Shown: positions 1 through 56,335 of the stretch, one piece after another
How the letters are laid out: the number at the start of each line of letters is the position of its first letter
Numbering within the stretch: position 1 is the first letter of the stretch
Source of the DNA: Ostreococcus lucimarinus
Lineage: Eukaryota
Reading direction: 5' to 3' (one strand)
Length of the DNA stretch: 64,000 nucleotides
NCBI GenBank assembly: GCA_000092065.1
Contig: CP000588.1
Program-made: the position numbers and the translations under genes
The notes under the pieces: generated by a model
Database searches by the model: none
The model's input: only the letters and a program-made list of their open reading frames with translations
Told to the model about the DNA's origin: nothing

Positions 1-2906
1 CAGCCCCGGATGACGACGCGGAGAAGGTTTTGGATCGCGCGTGGTACGACGACGACGAGGGCGGCGGCGCGCACGGCGACGCGCACAACCCTTTTAACAC
101 GAACGCACGGGATGAGGCGCGTTACGCGAACAAAGAACAAGAATACGCGAAAAGGTTGACTCGACGCGACGGGTCGCTCATGTCCATGGCTGCGTCGCGA
201 CGCGTCAGTCAACTCAACGCCGATTCAAATCAATGGGAAGAAAATCGTATGATGACGTCCGGTGTGATTCGCACCAAGGAAATTGATTTGGATTTTGATG
301 ACATGGAAGAAAACCGCGCGGTTTTGCTCGTGCACGACACGAAACCGCCATTCTTAGACGGCCGTATGGTGTTCACGAAGCAGCAAGAGACTGTCGTACC
401 GGTGAAGGACGTCACGAGCGACATGGCGCAAATCGCGCGCAAAGGAAGCGCGTTGGTGAAGGAAGTGCGTACGAAGCGAGAGGAGAACAAAGGTCGGGAT
501 CGATTTTGGGAAATGAAAGGGTCGAAGATGGGATCGATCACGGGTACGACACAAGCTGAAAACAAGGAAGCCGCGGAAAACGCGCAAGCGGCGAAAGGTC
601 GCGATGACGACAGACCAGACGTCGTCGGCGCGGACGGCGAAATCGATTTCAAGGCTGGCGCCAAGTTTGCCGAGCACATGAAAGGTTCGAAGGCGAGCGC
701 ACAAAGCGAGTTCGCGAAGACGAAGACGATCAAAGAACAGCGTGAGTTCTTACCTGTGTACGGTTGTCGCGAAGACTTGATGCATGTCATTCGCGAAAAT
801 CAAATCGTAGTCGTCGTCGGCGAAACCGGAAGCGGTAAGACGACGCAAATGACGCAATACATGCACGAGGAAGGTTACTCCACATTCGGGATGGTCGGTT
901 GCACTCAACCCCGTCGTGTAGCTGCAATGAGCGTCGCGAAGCGTGTGAGCGAGGAAATGGGCTGTGAACTAGGTAAGGAAGTCGGTTACGCCATTCGATT
1001 CGAGGACTGCACGGGGCCTGATACGATTATCAAGTACATGACGGATGGCGTGCTTCTTCGAGAAACTTTGCGCGAACCTGATCTTAACATGTACAGCTGT
1101 ATCATCATGGACGAAGCGCACGAACGATCGTTACACACTGACGTTCTATTCGGTATTCTGAAGAAAGTTGTCGCGCGCCGTCGCGATTTCAAGCTCATCG
1201 TCACGTCGGCGACGTTGAACGCAGAAAAGTTTAGTAACTTCTTTGGATCGGTGCCGGTTTTCCACATTCCTGGTCGCACGTTCCCGGTCGATATTCTGTA
1301 CTCCAAGACACCCGTGGAGGATTACGTCGAAGCTGCGGTGAAGCAAGCGCTCACTGTGCATCTCTCGTCGGGACCGGGTGACATTTTGATCTTCATGACG
1401 GGTCAAGAAGAAATCGAGACGGTGACGTACACGTTGGAAGAGCGCGTCGAGCAGTTGATGAGCGAAGGCACGTGTCCACCGCTGAACGTTTTACCAATCT
1501 ACTCACAACTCCCGAGCGATTTGCAGGCGAAGATTTTTCAAGACGCAGAGGATGGTAACCGAAAGTGCATCGTCAGTACGAACATCGCGGAGACGTCGCT
1601 CACGCTCGACGGCGTCATGTACGTCATCGACAGTGGTTATTGCAAACTTTCAGTGTTTAATCCTCGAATGGGTATGAATGCTTTGCAAGTTTTCCCTTGC
1701 GCGCAAGCTGCGGTGAATCAACGCAGCGGCCGCGCCGGTCGTACTGGACCAGGGACGTGCTATCGCCTGTACACGGAGATGGCGTTCAAGCACGAAATGC
1801 TCGTCTCGACGGTTCCCGAGATTCAACGCACCAACTTGGGTAACGTCGTGTTACTTTTGAAGTCGCTCAACGTGGATAACTTGTTAGATTTTGACTTCAT
1901 GGATCCTCCTCCCCAAGAAAATATCTTGAACAGCATGTATTCCCTGTGGATTTTAGGCGCGCTCGACAACACTGGCGGGCTCACGAAACTCGGCTCGAAG
2001 ATGGTTGAGTTTCCCGTCGACCCGCCGCTGGCGCAGATGCTCATCAAAGCGGAAGAAACGGGCTGCTCGAACGAAATGCTCACCGTCGTCGCGATGTTAT
2101 CGGTTCCGTCAGTGTGGTTCAGGCCGAAGGATCGAGAGGAAGAATCCGACGCCGCGCGCGAAAAGTTCTTCGTTCCCGAAAGCGACCACTTGACGTTGCT
2201 CAACGTGTACCAGCAATGGAAAAATAACGGGTACAGGAACGATTGGTGCAACAAGCATTTCATTCAGGGCAAAGGTCTGAAGAAAGGTAGAGAGGTGCGC
2301 GCGCAATTGATGGATATCATGAAGCAACAGAAAATCCCGCTCGTGAGCTGTGGGCAAGATTGGGACGTCTGCCGTCGATCCATCGCCGCCGCGTACTTTC
2401 ATCAAGCGGCGCGTTTGAAAGGCGTCGGTGAGTATGTCAATGCTCGCAATGGTATGCCTTGCCACCTTCATCCGAGCTCAGCGCTTTATGGTCTGGGTTA
2501 CACTCCTGATTACGTCGTATACCACGAACTCATCATGACATCGAAAGAATACATGCAATGCGTCACCGCCGTCGAACCGCACTGGCTCGCCGAATTCGGA
2601 CCGATGTTTTTCACGCTCAAGGAGAGCCATTCGAGCATGTTGAAATCAAAGGCGAAGCGCAAAGAGGACAAGGCGAAGATGGAGGCTGAAATGCAAGCTA
2701 AACGCGATGAGGAAGCACAGCTGCAAGAAGCGCAGCGCACGCGAGAAGAAGATCGCCGCGCGAGACAAAGGAGTCAAATCGTGACGCCGGGGCAACGCAG
2801 CGCGGCGACGACGCCGCGCGTAGATTACGGAACGTCGCGTCCCCCATCGAGCGTTCGGCGCGGTGCGGGTGGCCGGACGCCGGGAAGAAAACGCTTTGGA
2901 CTATAG
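1..2906 (+). CDS. PRP16: Pre-mRNA-splicing factor ATP-dependent RNA helicase PRP16 (DEAH-box, DHX38 orthologue); 5' end truncated by the window edge (frame open back to nt 1)
   Basis: 958-aa ORF collinear with human DHX38 over almost its whole length ([41 protein letters not shown]-terminal TPGRKRFGL). No in-frame ATG at the ORF start; the first codon is TTG and the frame continues upstream. Confidence 0.92.
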
Positions 2907-39862: not shown

Positions 39863-40373
39863 CTCGCTCGTCTCTTTCATGCGTCATTCAAAACCTAAGC
39901 TTCGTCTTCTACGTCGCGTCTCGCTACGACCCTCCCATGTTTTGCAGCCTCCCGAGCACGACTTGCCCGCTCTCCAGGTACCGCAGCGCGCAGTTCGTCA
40001 GGCAGCTCGACTCGCTCGACGAAAACTTCGCGCCCGGCGCGTACGTCACGCACTTCTCGAAGCACGTCTCCGTGAGCTTCGCGACGACCTCGTTGAACAC
40101 CGCCTTGCGCTTTTCCTCCTGCGGCGCGATGAAACGTCAGTCGTGCGACGCGCGACGGCGAACGCGGCGAATCGAGCGCACCTCGAGGAACTGTTGCATG
40201 TGCGCGTCGTTGGCCTGCATCGCGACGCGGCCTCGACGGATCGAGGATCGCGCGCGCGGGTGTGACGACGAGACGCGAATTCGAGCCGAGTCGCGAGCGC
40301 GAGCGCGGCGAGACGACGCGAAGGACGCGACGCGCGCGCGGCGATCGGTCGACGGCGACGCGCCGCGCCGTCA

Positions 40374-40452
40374 ACTCGCATTTCAATTCCAACTCGCATT
40401 TCAATTTACGTTTCAATTCGCGTTTCAATTCGCGTTTCAATTCGCGCGTTCG
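40374..40452. repeat. Tandem 12-nt minisatellite (consensus TTCGCGTTTCAA, about 6.5 units)
   Basis: ctcgcatttcaa / ttccaactcgcatttcaa / tttacgtttcaa / ttcgcgtttcaa / ttcgcgtttcaa / ttcgcg... Lies immediately at or after the stop of the minus-strand methyltransferase gene (40437). Confidence 0.8.
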
Positions 40453-41126
40453 ACGGACGCTCGCGCGCGCGCGCGCCTCGGCACGACGAAGACGCCGAAG
40501 TCGGCGGCGCGATCGCGCCGAACCTCCCACGGCGTCGAATCGTCGGGCTCGGCGAACGCACCGTCGCGCTCGAAGTCCACGCACGCGTCCAGGGCGTCGA
40601 CGCACGTGACGATGCGAAAATCTCCAATCTCCCAGGCGCGCCGCAGCGTCGGCGACAGTCGACGCAGGCCCGCGCCCGTGAGCCACGCGAACGCGCACGT
40701 CGGCGCGGGTGAATCGAGCACGCCGCGCGCCAGCGCCTCGGCGGTCAACGCGGTGAGATCACCTTTGTGCACGGTGATCAAGTCCTCGAGATTCTCGCGC
40801 GCGACGCGTTCGCGCGCGTCTCGCACGAGCGCGTCGTCGAGCTCGAGGCCCACGCAGCGGCAGCCCCTCGCCTTGGCGGCGTCCACGAGCACGCGCCCAT
40901 CGCCGCATCCGAGGTCGTACAGGACGTCGGAGGACGACAGCGCGCACGCGTCGAAGGCGACGGCGCGTCGGCGCGGCTCCGTGGGCGCCCACGGGGCGAG
41001 GGACGTCGCCGCCGCCTCGGCGCACTTTTCGTCGTTTCGAGCGGCGAGCGCGGCGCGCAGCAGCGCGTTCTGCGCGCGCGCGACGTCGGCGGGATCGAAA
41101 TCGTACGCGTCTTCGTCGTCGCGCAT
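40437..41126 (-). CDS. Class I SAM methyltransferase, ATPSCKMT/FAM173-like lysine methyltransferase
   Basis: VLYDLGCGDGRVLVDAAKARGCRCVGLELDDALV (motif I plus acidic beta2), ITVHKGDL. ATG at 41124-41126. Confidence 0.55.
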   Translation of the reverse strand: MRDDEDAYDFDPADVARAQNALLRAALAARNDEKCAEAAATSLAPWAPTEPRRRAVAFDACALSSSDVLYDLGCGDGRVLVDAAKARGCRCVGLELDDALVRDARERVARENLEDLITVHKGDLTALTAEALARGVLDSPAPTCAFAWLTGAGLRRLSPTLRRAWEIGDFRIVTCVDALDACVDFERDGAFAEPDDSTPWEVRRDRAADFGVFVVPRRARARASVERAN

Positions 41127-41209
41127 CGCGCGAGCGCGCGGTCGAGCGCGAGCTCGATCGACCGCGCGCTGTGCGGTCGGGGACGCGCTTCGAGTCGAAT
41201 CGCGTCGCG

Positions 41210-41893
41210 TTACATGACGAGTCGAATCGCGGCCAAAGACAGCGCGCCGAGCGATACCAGCGTCCCCACGCTGTATCGAATAATTTCCGTCTTCGCCGCC
41301 TCTATCTGCGTTCGCATCTGATGCAACTCTCGATCGACGCGCGCCTCGACCTCTTTCATCTGACTCTCCTGAATCCCGTGCAACTCTCGCAGTCGTCCCT
41401 TCTCCAGATTCAAGTCCAACTTTTGCGACTGCGTGATCCTATCGATGTTATACTTGAGATCGGCGCGCAGCTTCTCGTTCTCCGCCTGCAGGGTTTCGGT
41501 GGAGTGTTTCATCGACGCGCTCGCCTCGCGCAGCGACGACGCCACCTCCTGCTTGAGCGCCTGCGTCTCCGCGCGTCCGTGCATCAACTCTCGCTCCAGT
41601 TCGTTTCTCGCGACGAATCCCGCGCGCGTCATGGACGTCAGCGCGCTCGCGACGATGGCCTCCGCCTGCGGTTCGCCGAACCCGCCCGCTTTCGCGAGCT
41701 GCTTGATGATGGCGTGCGAGTCGAACCGGTCGACCGTCGCCGCGGGCGGGTCCCACGCCGTCGCCGGCGACGCCGCGGACGCGCGCGCGCGTCGCGCGAC
41801 GCCGCGCGCGTCGAAACGATCGACCGTCGCGAGTCGCGGGTCGAGCGCGCGCGCGCGTCGCGCGACGCGCGTCGCGACGCCGCGCGCGAACAT
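41210..41893 (-). CDS. DUF1640 (CCDC90B/MCUR1-like) mitochondrial coiled-coil membrane protein
   Basis: FDSHAIIKQLAKAGGFGEPQAEAIVASALTSM matches CCDC90B [28 protein letters not shown]. Coiled coil plus C-terminal TM (TLVSLGALSLAAIRLV). The ORF opens at 41914 with TTG; the first ATG is at 41893. Confidence 0.65.
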   Translation of the reverse strand: MFARGVATRVARRARALDPRLATVDRFDARGVARRARASAASPATAWDPPAATVDRFDSHAIIKQLAKAGGFGEPQAEAIVASALTSMTRAGFVARNELERELMHGRAETQALKQEVASSLREASASMKHSTETLQAENEKLRADLKYNIDRITQSQKLDLNLEKGRLRELHGIQESQMKEVEARVDRELHQMRTQIEAAKTEIIRYSVGTLVSLGALSLAAIRLVM

Positions 41894-42101
41894 CGATTTG
41901 AACGATGAATTCAAAGCCGTCGTCGCGCGGCGTCGCGCGGCGTCGCCGAAGCGCGGGCGTCGAGACGCGCGCGCGAGCGTGCGAACCTCGAGACGCGCGC
42001 GCGACGCGGACGCGCGACGCGCGCGCGACGCGACGCGAACGCGGTGATGTGAAGCGACGCGGTCGTTAGTCCCGCGGTACTTCGTCGCGCCGCGCGCCGC
42101 G

Positions 42102-46107: not shown

Positions 46108-46457
46108 AACATCGCGCAAGCCGGCGTTTGGGACGTCGATGGCACTGGTTTGCAAGATATCGAGGACGAGTCGGTGGCGACGGCGATTCGTAAAAAGGTT
46201 AACGATTTTAACGGTAAAAGCGCGGCGGCGGTGGCGGTGATCACCGCGATGTACGTCGCGCTGCCGGTGTAGACGTCGGTCGTCGAACGGTGTCGTTCGG
46301 TGGGATGGTGCGCCGTGACGGCGCGCGCCGAAAGCGCTGACGCGTTCAGCGAGGCGCGCGCTCGATACGCCATCTCACTTTGTGACGCGCGAGAGTTTGG
46401 CGATGTGTTGTAAAATTACGCTTCTTTCATTTCAATCTAGAGAAGACGATTTCGTTA

Positions 46458-49552: not shown

Positions 49553-50746
49553 ATGAAGCGTAAAACGAGCGTAAAACGCGAAGACGACGACGACGCGCGA
49601 TCCGACGACGCGCGCGGCGCGCGGGGGGGGGCGAGCGCGTACGAAACGGACGACGCGCTGACGCAGTATTTGGAATTTCACTACGCGCGAAGTGACAGTT
49701 ACGACGGAGACATTCAACACGGTCGACCACCGCGTTTCGCGGGAACGCTGCCGGCAAGCGGTTTTGTAGAAAAGGAAGGGTGTGAAGGGTGTCATGAGTT
49801 TGTGCCGTTTCCCGTGCGCTGTACGTGGTTCTTGATGAACGCGCTGAGAGCGAGCCCCAAGTTCCTGTCCCGCTCGGACGAAGGCGAGAAAATGCGAGCG
49901 CTCGACGTCGGTTGCGCCGTGGGCGGCGCGACGATCGAATTGGCGAGAAAACGATGTATACATCGGGAATGTTACGAGACCTTCTTCGGATATGACGAAC
50001 GGACGTGTTGCGGTTACCATTTGTTATCAAAGGTGTTTTGGAGCTATCGGGGCGAGAGAATAGCAGGCTGGCCCGATGTTTGGGGATACCTACCGCGTCA
50101 TGGGAAACTAGACGAATTCGAATATCATCACGAACTAGCGGAGCGCGTAAAGCACGCAGAGTTTGTTTTCGATGAAGTCGTTGGATTTGATAGTAGCGCA
50201 CCCTTCATCGAAGCGGCAAAGCAGATGCGCGATGAAAAAGAGAGGCGTGTAGATGTTCCAATGGAAGGCGGTAAACGGGAAAGTATGGAATTGAGTTGGT
50301 TTGAAGACGCTCCATTCATCGATTGGTTCAAGAGCTGGGCGACCGAGAAACACTTGGTGGATTTCAAACCAATGACAAAGTGTACGTTTGAAGTCGGCGA
50401 CGCGTGCTCGCTCGAGTACTGGAAAACTCTGGGGAAATTTGACGCCGTGTTGGTGGCCAACTTACTGTGTCGACTGCCTCGGCCGCGAGCGTGCCTGGAT
50501 GGACTGGCGACGGTGTGCAATCCCGGCGCCGTCGTCGTGTTTTGCACGCCGTGGTCCTGGTTGGACGAGTACACGCCAGATAAACGCGAGCGCTTAGACA
50601 GTGCAGAGTTAGTATCGGAAATGAAGACGCGGGGTTTCGAAGAGGGCGAGCGGGACTATGATTACGAAATCCCGTGTTTCATTCGGGAGCATTACCGAAA
50701 AGTACAGTACATCATATCACAAGTGCGCGTGTTCATCAAACAGTAG
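49553..50746 (+). CDS. Class I SAM methyltransferase resembling the OvoA C-terminal / putative 4-mercaptohistidine N1-methyltransferase family, with an about 70-aa Cys/His-rich insertion after motif I
   Basis: LTQYLEFHY N-terminal motif, motif I ALDVGCAVGGATIELARK, VVGFDSSAPFIEAAKQ, FEVGDACSL...FDAVLVANLLCRLPRPRACL...GAVVVFCTPWSWLDEYTP. Family assignment is from memory of the TIGR04345 consensus. Confidence 0.5.
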   Translation: MKRKTSVKREDDDDARSDDARGARGGASAYETDDALTQYLEFHYARSDSYDGDIQHGRPPRFAGTLPASGFVEKEGCEGCHEFVPFPVRCTWFLMNALRASPKFLSRSDEGEKMRALDVGCAVGGATIELARKRCIHRECYETFFGYDERTCCGYHLLSKVFWSYRGERIAGWPDVWGYLPRHGKLDEFEYHHELAERVKHAEFVFDEVVGFDSSAPFIEAAKQMRDEKERRVDVPMEGGKRESMELSWFEDAPFIDWFKSWATEKHLVDFKPMTKCTFEVGDACSLEYWKTLGKFDAVLVANLLCRLPRPRACLDGLATVCNPGAVVVFCTPWSWLDEYTPDKRERLDSAELVSEMKTRGFEEGERDYDYEIPCFIREHYRKVQYIISQVRVFIKQ

Positions 50747-50759
50747 CAGCGAAGCGATT

Positions 50760-52139
50760 TCAATAGAGCACCACTTGCGCGCGAGTGTCGCGAACCCATC
50801 GTCCGAGTCGCTCGTCGAGCGTGAAGAATCGAGGCTCAAACGTTTCGCCGCGCGCCTCTCGCTCGCGTCGCTTTTCTCTTTCGGATTCCTCGACACGCTT
50901 CTTCGCGTTTTTCGCGTCGTCCCATCGATTCTCCTCCATCGCTTTAAACGTCTCTTTCCACACGACTTCGGTGTCTCGTTCGTCGTCGAGGTGCGTGTGT
51001 CGAACGATTTGCCCTCGGAACCTTTTCGCGTCTTCCAAATCGTAACGAGCGACGGCTTCGCCACTCGAAATTTTCTTCGCGACGACGCTGCCGTCGTATC
51101 GCCCATCGATCTCGCAGACGGCGGCACCGCTCCAGGTACTGTATACGACACCGCGAACACCACGCTTCGCGGCGTACGTAAATTCGCCTCGTAAACCCGT
51201 CTTTTCGCATCGAATCGACCACTTTCGCTTGCGCGTCATTCGCGAATGCCACCTCGGGACGAATCGCCACTCAAACGACGGTAAATCGCTCACGTACGTC
51301 TCGTCGCGATCGATCAGCGTAATTCTCGCCTCGCCTTCGAGCTCGACTTCGATGTGCGCGCCGACGAGGTGCGGTTTCGGTCGCAACTCACCCTCCACGC
51401 GGACGTTCGATCCGCGAGTGCAATGCGCCGAAATCGGCGGATGATGCGACACTTGTTCCCAAACGCTCTCGAATCGCTCGTTCGGGAAAACCACCGAATG
51501 AATCGCCGTTTCCCCCAGCACTGGATTGAGCGGCTTTTTCAGCGACGCCGGCGGCTCGATCTCCGCGATCATCGCCAGAGCGACGCCCGCGAAGCGCGTC
51601 ACCGCGTCGTCTCGCTCGGCGTCGACGCGTCTCAACATCTCAAAAAATCGCACCGTGCGCGACGGCGCGTCGCTCGACACCGAGCTCGCGCTGTCCGTCA
51701 CCGTTCGCAGCAGAGATATTCTCGCGCACCATCGAATCGGGGTCCCGAGAAACGACGTCAAGTCCACCCTGCCACCGCGCGCGGCGACGCTCGCCATCGC
51801 CGTCACCGCCTTCGCGTACGCCCTCGCCTTGGCCGCGAACGACCCTCCTCGAGATTCCGCCTCCATCTCCGACGACGCCCGCGCGAGCGCGCGGTGAAAC
51901 GCATCGTCCGCTTGCGTCTTCGGCTGCGTCGTCGCCAGCGTCGTCGCCGTCGCCGTCGCCGTCGCGTTCGCGTCCGTCTCCAGCCTTCGTTCCTCGACCT
52001 CGGACGATTTCACCAACGTCGGCGCCCACCACGGCGCGCGTCGCTCGAACGACGACGGTGCGTCGTAAAAGATTTCTTTTTCGCTCTCCCGCGGCTCTGC
52101 GTCGTCTCGCGGCGCGCGGACGCACGCGAAACACGCCAT
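50760..52139 (-). CDS. Oxysterol-binding protein-related protein (short ORD-only ORP, Osh4/Kes1-like)
   Basis: OSBP fingerprint EQVSHHPPISAHC. ATG at 52137-52139. Confidence 0.8.
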   Translation of the reverse strand: MACFACVRAPRDDAEPRESEKEIFYDAPSSFERRAPWWAPTLVKSSEVEERRLETDANATATATATTLATTQPKTQADDAFHRALARASSEMEAESRGGSFAAKARAYAKAVTAMASVAARGGRVDLTSFLGTPIRWCARISLLRTVTDSASSVSSDAPSRTVRFFEMLRRVDAERDDAVTRFAGVALAMIAEIEPPASLKKPLNPVLGETAIHSVVFPNERFESVWEQVSHHPPISAHCTRGSNVRVEGELRPKPHLVGAHIEVELEGEARITLIDRDETYVSDLPSFEWRFVPRWHSRMTRKRKWSIRCEKTGLRGEFTYAAKRGVRGVVYSTWSGAAVCEIDGRYDGSVVAKKISSGEAVARYDLEDAKRFRGQIVRHTHLDDERDTEVVWKETFKAMEENRWDDAKNAKKRVEESEREKRREREARGETFEPRFFTLDERLGRWVRDTRAQVVLY

Positions 52140-55316: not shown

Positions 55317-56150
55317 TTAAAACGACCACTGAAACGAAACATCCGCGACGTCATCGACGATGCCAACCTTTTCAAATCTCCCCGCGCTCTCCCACGCCTC
55401 GAGACCCCCTCGGACTTCGTCGTACGTCTTCGCGCCGTCCGGGTCGCGCTTGACCGCCTCGTACATCCGACGCAAATTCGCCCCACCGAGCGCCGCGCCC
55501 TCGCTCCAACCGAAGTACTTTGGCAACAAAAAATCACAAAAAATCAGCGTCGGAAACAGCGCGGCGTCCGCCGCGCTCTTCGTCTCGCCCGCGACGTAAT
55601 CGCCGTCCTCGCGTCCGCAAATCTCGTCCAGTATCCGCAACTGCCTCGCGATCTCCGCCAACTGCGTCGCGCGCGTCGCTCGGTCCATCGGCCCTCGATA
55701 CATCGCCCCCTGTATCGGCACCAAGTACTGATCGTGCGTTCGCGTCGCCAGCGCCCCGTTCGTCCGTCCCTCGATCGTCTTCGGCGTCGCCAGTCTCCGC
55801 GCCCCCTCGCTCGCCGCGTCCATCAGGTACGCGTTGATCACCTCGCTCTCCGGCACGCGCAGCCCGTTCGCCGCGACGAGCGTCGGCATCTTGAGCTGCG
55901 GATTAATCTCCGCGTACGCCGCGGACTTGATCCCGCCGTCCGCGAACGCGTCGTTCGGATTCGTCAACACGAGGTCGTCGTACAGCCCGAGCCAGCGCGC
56001 GAGCAATCGACACCGCGCGCCGTTGTTCGACACCGGGACGTCGTACAGCGTGCCGAGCGCGCGCGGGCGAAGCGTTGCCGCGCGCTGCGGCGTCGCGCGG
56101 CGCGCGCGCGCGCGCGCGGGCGCGGGCGCGGCGCGAGGCAACGTCGACAT
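55317..56150 (-). CDS. GST: Glutathione S-transferase family protein, plastid/mito-targeted
   Basis: Thioredoxin-like N-domain (LYDVPVSNNGARCRLLARWLGL, INPQLKMPTL, ESEVINAYL) plus helical C-domain. ATG at 56148-56150 (MSTLPRAAPAPARA presequence). Confidence 0.65.
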   Translation of the reverse strand: MSTLPRAAPAPARARARRATPQRAATLRPRALGTLYDVPVSNNGARCRLLARWLGLYDDLVLTNPNDAFADGGIKSAAYAEINPQLKMPTLVAANGLRVPESEVINAYLMDAASEGARRLATPKTIEGRTNGALATRTHDQYLVPIQGAMYRGPMDRATRATQLAEIARQLRILDEICGREDGDYVAGETKSAADAALFPTLIFCDFLLPKYFGWSEGAALGGANLRRMYEAVKRDPDGAKTYDEVRGGLEAWESAGRFEKVGIVDDVADVSFQWSF

Positions 56151-56335
56151 GACGAAGACGCGTCGCACACTGACGCGCGGCGCGCGCGCGCGACGCGTCG
56201 AAGGGCCGATCGGACGGCGCGCGCGGCGCCGACGCGTTCGTGGACGCGAACGCGCGAGAAACGGGACGCGCGAGGGCGCGAGGGCGACGCGAGACGGTCG
56301 GGACATCGCCGCCGCCGCCGCGAGCCGAAAGCGCG

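Follow-up and report, generated by a model that had tools for sequence, protein, structure and literature searches.

What is a segment of about 70 residues, AT-rich and dotted with cysteines and histidines, doing immediately after motif I of a methyltransferase? The question is raised by the gene at 49553-50746, on the plus strand of a 64,000-nucleotide stretch of Ostreococcus lucimarinus DNA (contig CP000588.1; the whole stretch is called the window here). A preliminary description of the gene had placed its product in the OvoA C-terminal family of ovothiol biosynthesis and had offered two accounts of the insertion, a lineage-specific zinc-binding element or the footprint of a foreign origin. 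The reading favoured here, to which we give a probability of about 0.6, is that the gene codes for a vertically inherited, divergent OvoM-like enzyme, that the insertion is translated and forms an orphan loop joining helix αA to strand β2, that this loop and a second tract of the same gene are fast-changing islands reshuffled by recombination, and that the low GC content belongs to the lineage. From the comparison of alleles, hypervariability, and not Cys/His or AT content, appears to be the main peculiarity of the insertion.

The open reading frame (ORF) is as first described, and every motif then quoted is present in its translation. It is a complete coding sequence (CDS), running from ATG to TAG, whose 397-residue product is identified by the ORF listing and by TIGR04345, Pfam, Protein Data Bank (PDB) and Foldseek comparisons as a divergent stand-alone OvoM/OvsM-like methyltransferase dependent on S-adenosylmethionine (SAM). 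The best and sole strong NCBIfam match is to TIGR04345 (ovoA_Cterm; 97.4 bits, E 9e-28), in two stretches, the second of which pairs residues 205-394 with profile positions 62-240; the Pfam scan returns only the generic models Methyltransf_31/23/12/25/11. A phmmer search of the PDB finds OvsM (9bxh, 7e-21), OvoM (9bxl, 1e-14) and the bifunctional OvoA (8khq, 4e-12). In an AlphaFold2 model built from a 69-sequence alignment the core is confident, with 180 residues at a predicted local distance difference test score (pLDDT) of at least 90, and Foldseek ranks 1-11 are all OvsM, OvoM or OvoA (E 2e-18 to 1.5e-16, template modelling score normalised to the target, TM(target), ~0.8), the next family following at 3e-7, eleven orders of magnitude behind. 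The model has the class I fold together with the N-terminal cap specific to the family, as expected of the structural group formed by OvoM, OvsM and the OvoA methyltransferase domain. All invariant and at least 90% conserved columns of the 69-sequence alignment hold the consensus residue in the window protein (Y39, L40, H43, F86, R89, motif I, D213, S215, GDA, N303-P311, P333, W336, T341 and R378-Q385), and the motifs of the group are present throughout: YLxFH, FPxR, LDxGCxxG, DxS (acidic, at the end of β2), GDA, NLxCRLPxP, PxSW...T and IREHxRKxQ. The curated cut-off of TIGR04345, an equivalog domain model for the putative 4-mercaptohistidine N1-methyltransferase, is nevertheless set at 170 bits and is not reached: the native protein scores 97.4, rising to 113.5 when the 69-residue insertion is deleted and to 128.3 when all three lineage-specific additions are trimmed. 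The family assignment first proposed thus holds for the OvoM/OvsM/OvoA group, by sequence and by predicted fold, and falls short for equivalog membership (97-128 against 170 bits).

OvsM, the 5-selenohistidine Nπ-methyltransferase of the ovoselenol pathway (9bxh, 9bxj, 9bxk), is the best match in the PDB both by sequence and by fold (E 2e-18, TM(target) 0.80); like the window protein it is a stand-alone single-domain enzyme, and the motifs YLxFHY, LDxGCAVG, FDEVxGxDxS, FxVGDAC and NLxxRLPxP align between the two. OvsM differs in being bacterial and in the clustering or co-occurrence of its gene with ovsA and senB/C, none of which the window contains; the structural alignment gives ~23% identity, and the window protein lacks a WLGG segment and carries two further insertions. 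The OvoA C-terminal domain (TIGR04345) has the same fold and motifs, and the window protein is set apart from it by its score below the cut-off and by being unfused to a sulfoxide synthase (NCBIfam, Pfam). The OvsM activity in vitro and the existence of stand-alone Nπ-methyltransferases have been reported (bioRxiv 10.1101/2024.04.10.588772), the activity of the OvoA methyltransferase domain is documented (bioRxiv 10.1101/2024.04.10.588772; bioRxiv 10.64898/2026.02.12.702910), and the methyltransferase of Chlamydomonas forms part of the fusion protein OVOA1 (bioRxiv 10.64898/2026.02.12.702910). Many relatives in the databases, 37-41% identical, are OvoA proteins in which an FGE-sulfatase domain (PF03781) is fused. 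The window protein would be best described as a divergent OvoM/OvsM-like methyltransferase with a putative substrate class given by homology only, and our best guess at its likeliest reaction is Nπ-methylation, with a substrate of the 5-thio- or 5-seleno-histidine type. To our knowledge, stand-alone OvoM- and OvsM-type methyltransferases have been characterised only recently and in bacteria only, and green-algal ovothiol has so far been tied to the fused OvoA of the OVOA1 type found in Chlamydomonas. The gene would then represent a divergent, insertion-bearing branch of the stand-alone enzymes in marine green algae, one that the equivalog model TIGR04345 misses and for which a substrate is not to be assumed in annotation.

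The insertion itself is sharply placed. Alignment with 15 and then with 68 homologues puts about 70 extra residues between ELARK(R) and FDEVVGFD and delimits them to residues 135-203 (49955-50161). In the phmmer alignment with OvsM (9bxh), residues 111-133 of the query are matched to 64-86 of the chain and residues 206-346 to 87-209; because of this pairing, the segment sits between two adjacent residues of a solved structure, 69 residues in the window protein standing where OvsM has none between 86 and 87. These alignments uphold the claim that an in-frame insertion peculiar to the lineage stands immediately behind motif I and helix αA. Outside four syntenic allele classes the insertion is present in no homologue; it has no Pfam match, and an HMMER scan of 1.84 billion representative proteins returned only the orthologous insertion of the protein P0003. 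Its pLDDT in the AlphaFold2 model is 44-52, and the description that suits it best is that of a largely unstructured surface loop, arisen de novo, that probably has no independent fold. As the topology of class I methyltransferases suggests, the αA-β2 turn would lie opposite the SAM site, on an edge of the Rossmann sheet, where a large, translated and lineage-restricted orphan loop should be tolerable.

The vertical inheritance of the gene in a green-lineage picoeukaryote, as the favoured reading has it, is suggested by its algal orthologues. One of these, P0016 (251 aa), from a related lineage, is free of the insertion and stands at the same chromosomal position, in an identical gene order: CCDC90-like, FAD oxidoreductase, Dus, aspartyl-tRNA synthetase, HPP, methyltransferase, oxysterol-binding protein (OSBP), nicastrin, GST and PolE2. 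Together with P0007-P0014 it forms a set of ~250-residue proteins, 44-49% identical to the window protein, that share with it TPWSWLDEYTPD without the WLGG segment as well as PCFIREH, and that differ in having neither the αA-β2 insertion nor the N-terminal extension nor a further insertion of 17 residues. A closer relative, P0006, carries only ~12 extra acidic residues at the insertion site.

Whether the segment is read by the ribosome can be judged from its behaviour in related alleles. Matching contigs from marine and estuarine metagenomes fall into four syntenic allele classes: class W (the window, L004, L005 and L012-L023), class A (L001), class B (L002 and L006) and class C (L003, on the same contig as L007). 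The insertion measures 207, 165, 183 and 189 nt in these classes, and a second variable tract, island 1, measures 117, 78, 78 and 108 nt between fixed anchors; all these lengths are multiples of three, none of the alleles has an in-frame stop, and the other two reading frames do contain stops. A block within the insertion (H137-R138, YD[DE]RTCCG[YH], L[ST]xVF and Y165) is moreover conserved at the protein level. From this pattern, translation of the insertion is much the more likely state. The 314-aa product P0002, considered as a disrupted allele, is the W allele interrupted by runs of N in a scaffold.

It is in the comparison of these alleles that the gene departs from its surroundings. The median 100-nt interval is identical between the window and L007 over 21 kb, and the window and L001 are ~99% identical outside the methyltransferase gene; within it, identity drops with sharp edges to 41-77% in two islands, at 49688-49798 (island 1) and at 49955-50161 (island 2, which is the insertion). 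Pooled over the islands, divergence from class W amounts to 0.33 substitutions per aligned site for class A, 0.21 for class C and 0.35 for class B, against 0.030, 0.013 and 0.060 at neighbouring four-fold degenerate sites (p < 1e-22 in all three pairs), and it is 0.21-0.33 in island 2 alone; the islands are thus 6-17 times as divergent as the neighbouring silent sites. Their differences fall about equally on the three codon positions (for instance 14:10:10), with 15 transitions to 25 transversions against a background of 93:69, and the Nei-Gojobori ratio of non-synonymous to synonymous divergence (dN/dS) is ~0.6-1.4, island 1 of classes A and B differing by 12.8 non-synonymous and 0.2 synonymous changes. 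Because of the even codon positions, the dN/dS values and the divergence contrast taken together, the islands behave as unconstrained sequence that has yet diverged beyond adjacent neutral sites.

The islands do not share one history. By identity, A pairs with B (0.81) and W with C (0.76) in island 1; in island 2 the left block groups A with C (0.97) and the right block C with W (0.77), whereas in the core the order is W-C 0.99, W-A 0.97 and 0.94-0.95 for class B. Such conflicting genealogies of adjacent segments imply that the alleles have been reshuffled by recombination, allele C being a mosaic. Among the fourteen class-W contigs, drawn from different samples, nucleotide diversity (π) is 0.20% in island 2 and 0.65% in island 1, with ~0.1% in neighbouring genes and 0-0.02% in the core, a 3-4-fold excess of polymorphism in the islands that is non-significant. 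Similar patterns, short hypervariable tracts with sharp boundaries and mosaic alleles in an otherwise conserved gene, are known from the variable regions of diversity-generating retroelements (DGRs) and from antigenic-variation cassettes; unlike these, the methyltransferase gene has no template repeat or donor cassette in the window, its substitution spectrum is not adenine-specific, its alleles are stable within a lineage and they differ by indels too. A DGR-type or ongoing hypermutation is unlikely, there being no template copy and no A-bias and the insertion being nearly invariant within class W. The divergence may stem from allele classes of old standing, from positive selection acting in episodes or from a moderate excess of mutation at the locus.

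The remainder of the gene evolves under looser constraint than its neighbours. In the W-B comparison dN/dS of the conserved core is 0.52, against 0.06-0.24 in the OSBP, nicastrin, DEAD helicase and PolE2 genes, so purifying selection on the enzyme core is present but weak, which fits both the drop in GC at third codon positions (GC3) described below and the tolerance of three lineage-specific additions. Among the five genes compared, a GST-like gene (55317-56306, minus strand) is an exception, being fast relative to L006 with a dS of 0.21 and a dN/dS of 0.51, both about twice those of its neighbours.

Put together, the favoured reading would run as follows. A large orphan loop would have arisen de novo at a tolerant turn of the Rossmann fold of a stand-alone member of the OvoM/OvsM/OvoA-C-terminal SAM-dependent N-methyltransferases; its first half would retain a small conserved core (H137-R138, YD[DE]RTCCG[YH], VF) that may pack against the domain, and its second half would be an unconstrained spacer in which only the reading frame is maintained. 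Between close strains, this loop and island 1 would then have changed 6-17 times, that is an order of magnitude, faster than silent sites, and have been reshuffled by recombination.

A number of points weigh against this reading. The whole algal subclade P0006-P0016 scores 114-123 bits with TIGR04345 and, with the window protein, stays below 170, whereas stand-alone homologues of Ectocarpus, Balamuthia and Verrucomicrobiota reach 197-222 bits; canonical members have a WLGG segment after EYTP which both the window protein and that entire subclade lack, so that the substrate and activity may differ. With two N-terminal regions of OvoA as queries, tblastn found no OvoA sulfoxide synthase in the 64-kb window; the genes of a eukaryotic pathway do not have to be neighbours. 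Translation is deduced from a reading frame kept in no more than four allele classes, which are partly related, and every allele has in its conserved flanks a weak GC-AG pair of potential splice sites (49943..50161), excision at which would leave the plausible junction ATIEL|FVFDEVVG. Contrasts of polymorphism to divergence, made in the manner of a Hudson-Kreitman-Aguadé (HKA) test, give p = 0.07-0.67. The contig of allele C is long-read-style, with isolated 1-nt indels in housekeeping genes, and its two compensated frameshift pairs are unreliable and perhaps partly artefacts. A conserved H...CC core in the insertion, finally, could bind a metal or be redox-active.

Selection is the first alternative to be considered for the islands, which would then be tracts under adaptive diversification, driven either by positive selection that recurs (as in an escape from some protein, viral or not, that binds the enzyme at this surface) or by balancing selection that keeps long-lived allele classes, with flanks homogenised by recombination. 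Such a regime would be expressed in much of what is seen: a divergence 6-17 times that of silent sites with sharp boundaries to ~99% identical flanks, discrete and internally uniform allele classes (fourteen class-W contigs with π at 0.2% in island 2), island genealogies in conflict with the background tree, and the excess of non-synonymous change between A and B in island 1. The dN/dS of the islands is, however, not clearly above 1 and the differences are even over codon positions, the HKA-like contrasts are non-significant, and the allele classes are only four, one of them from an error-prone contig; on the first three of these counts (dN/dS ~1, even codon positions, HKA-like tests) positive selection within the islands is no more than a possible cause. 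A similar cluster of substitutions in an unrelated neighbouring gene (41472-41580) points to a more general process, and adaptive diversification is on balance rather unlikely. It would be equally doubtful to go further and see in the two tracts sharply bounded, recombining allele classes of wild picoalgal populations otherwise ~99% identical, maintained by selection on an exposed surface, as in an arms race with a virus-encoded or other partner, or produced by a locally acting mutational process as yet undescribed in green algae. If selection drives the divergence, the islands would mark an unrecognised interaction surface; if mutation does, they would mark a local mutational hotspot.

The second hyper-divergent tract lies in the minus-strand CCDC90-like gene at 41210-41914, where the window and L007 differ at 41472-41580 by ~30 substitutions (10 transitions and 20 transversions) and are otherwise ~100% identical; as a cluster of the same kind, it indicates that the process may not be unique to the methyltransferase gene.

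The second alternative holds that the insertion is a small folded module, binding a metal or acting in redox chemistry, that regulates the enzyme or docks a partner. The allele of the window, with 4 Cys and 6 His in 71 residues, does invite it, and classes W, A and B all keep H137, R138, C152-C153 and a number of aromatic residues. This Cys/His richness is limited to the window allele, however; among W, A and B the conserved potential ligands are only three, H137 and the vicinal C152 and C153, all other Cys and His being variable, and vicinal cysteines rarely bind the same zinc ion. Four conserved Cys, His or Asp ligands at a recognisable spacing, as a zinc module would display, are not present in the insertion; its pLDDT stays below 52, it matches no Pfam model, it has no homologue elsewhere and its C-terminal half is free in length and sequence. 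The zinc-binding insertion of the preliminary description is thus not borne out, and a metal or redox module in general is improbable.

A third alternative would remove the segment from the protein altogether, as an in-frame spliceosomal or retained intron read through by prokaryote-style gene calling. The insertion does have a lower GC with no enrichment in GC3 and evolves like unconstrained sequence, and excision at the conserved GC...AG pair 49943/50161 would leave a junction only one residue shorter than the homologues. An enumeration of all frame-keeping GT/GC...AG pairs leaves this weak pair in the conserved flanks as the only candidate: its GCGAGA makes a poor donor, the other alleles lack the one GT close to the left edge (49956), and a splice joining GT49956 to AG50159 would introduce a TAG. 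The four classes keep to multiples of three and stay free of stops although they are 18-42 nt apart in length and stops occur in the other frames, the YD[DE]RTCCG[YH] block is conserved in the protein, the surrounding genes are single uninterrupted ORFs in an apparently intron-poor genome, and a neutral intron could not account for a divergence above that of silent and intergenic sites. With no conserved GT donor and with the frame kept in four alleles of differing length, an intron at this place is quite improbable, and the favoured reading keeps the segment as coding sequence.

The base composition that had first drawn attention to the locus is confirmed by windowed comparison, the dip being real, with GC below the window mean and GC3 below that of neighbouring genes. 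In 200-nt intervals GC is 0.47-0.50 across 50000-50400 against a window mean of 0.638, and 50101-50400 is the lowest-GC 300-nt stretch of the 64 kb (0.47); for GC3 the values are 0.51 for the insertion, 0.53 for the core at 50162-50416, through which the low-GC stretch extends, and 0.70-0.85 for neighbouring genes. The other low-GC stretch of the window is a DEAH/HA2-type RNA helicase gene (30-2906, plus strand), at 0.49-0.52 in 300-nt intervals. The orthologues have a normal GC3, like that of their surroundings (P0016 0.75, P0006 0.84), and in the codons shared with them the window gene has a GC3 of 0.52-0.67 against 0.72-0.92, so that the AT shift is a derived, gene-wide feature of the window lineage. 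Under the favoured reading the low GC would have three causes: an unadapted insertion shaped by mutation, an amino-acid composition rich in aromatic and charged residues, and the gene-wide, lineage-specific fall in GC3 under weakened selection.

That the insertion is foreign DNA, an exonised mobile element or a horizontally acquired segment with its AT-richness as a footprint, is highly improbable: it is the lowest-GC stretch of the 64-kb window and an orphan sequence, but the window holds no second copy of it, no terminal inverted or direct repeats or target-site duplication were found at its ends, it has no Rfam match, the gene has no relatives in the viral contig collection IMG/VR, the syntenic insertion-free orthologues have a normal GC3, the low GC runs on into the conserved core and P0006 has a short intermediate spacer at the same site. 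The footprint suggested earlier finds no support in these results; a mobile element is set aside for the missing copy and terminal repeats, and a viral or horizontal origin for the missing IMG/VR relatives, the synteny and the GC3 of the orthologues. Other sources were discarded in turn: a structured RNA (no Rfam matches, no tRNAs), a captured domain (no Pfam match, and the orthologous insertion as sole match in 1.84e9 representative proteins), and an intein, for which the segment is too short, without a C-terminal His-Asn and variable in its first residue. A local duplication had been prompted by the repeat GGCGAGAAAA at 49883, 49942 and 50051; Smith-Waterman alignment of the insertion with both flanks, as protein and as DNA, was no better than with shuffled sequences. 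As far as these comparisons reach, the insertion appears to be an orphan sequence grown in place.

Along the CDS, conserved and variable segments alternate. The protein opens with a charged, low-complexity extension (residues 1-29, 49553-49639, plus strand as for all segments) that is not found in the 250-aa homologues, has a pLDDT of 41-47 and occurs as in-frame length variants within allele class W. A poly-G run at 49623-49631 in this N-terminal region differs in length between contigs; L012 and L013 have scaffold N-gaps at this run, and the apparent N-terminal frameshift of L003 falls there as well. The family-specific N-terminal motif YETDDALTQYLEFHYA follows (residues 30-45, 49640-49687), in which Y39, L40 and H43 are at least 90% conserved among 69 family members and whose stretch aligns with OvsM residues 17-42. 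Island 1 (residues 46-82, 49688-49798) is an expanded loop between the YLxFHY and FPxR motifs, with an identity of 0.47-0.81 between classes, a GC3 of 0.43 and a pLDDT of 46-56. Conserved core 1 (residues 83-134, 49799-49954; pLDDT 89-95) comprises FPVRC, β1, the SAM motif I LDVGCAVGG and the αA sequence ATIELARKR; F86, R89, L117, G120, C121 and G124 are invariant, and the segment has no segregating site in the 14 class-W contigs.

The insertion, island 2 (residues 135-203), is divided into two blocks. The left block (49955-50047), semi-conserved with the H137-R138, YD[DE]RTCCG[YH], L[ST]xVF and Y165 elements already named, is gap-free among W, A and B at 74-80% identity, and the right block (50048-50161) varies in length (114, 72, 90 and 99 nt) as well as in sequence (identity 0.47-0.77). 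Conserved core 2 (residues 204-397, 50162-50746) carries β2 with FDEVVGFDSS, then FEVGDAC, NLLCRLPRP, TPWSWLDEYTP and IREHYRKVQ, at a pLDDT of 80-98 except in a 17-aa insertion; D213 (acidic), S215, F279, A284, N303, R307, P311, P333, W336 and T341 are invariant and R378-Q385 nearly so. That second lineage-specific insertion, APFIDWFKSWATEKHLV (residues 253-269, 50309-50359; pLDDT below 50), is present neither in P0006 nor in any other homologue and hardly varies among 21 sequences drawn from the four allele classes.

The window as a whole is a compact, GC-rich eukaryotic region of long single ORFs, apparently intron-poor, whose genes include those for aspartyl-tRNA synthetase, an HPP-family membrane protein, the methyltransferase, an oxysterol-binding protein, nicastrin, a GST, a DEAD helicase and DNA polymerase ε subunit B. 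For the polymerase subunit the best named relatives are those of land plants and Pyramimonas, at about 40% identity, and metagenome proteins match it at 65-74%, which places the source in the green lineage. Against the window, L007 carries two further insertions, a GC-rich, repeat-like one of 128 nt (CGCGTCGAATCGGAATCGGAATCGCG... units) at 41183 and one of 48 nt at 46273. Ten indels of 1-3 nt separate the two within the 700 nt at 40245-40935, inside the ORF 39937-41217, in which GC at second codon positions (GC2) is 0.69; this ORF may be of low complexity or not truly coding, or long-read errors of L007 may be concentrated at 40245-40935. The methyltransferase gene and the convergent oxysterol-binding-protein gene are separated by 13 nt from stop to stop (50746-50760), a gap that implies a compact genome with overlapping 3' untranslated regions.

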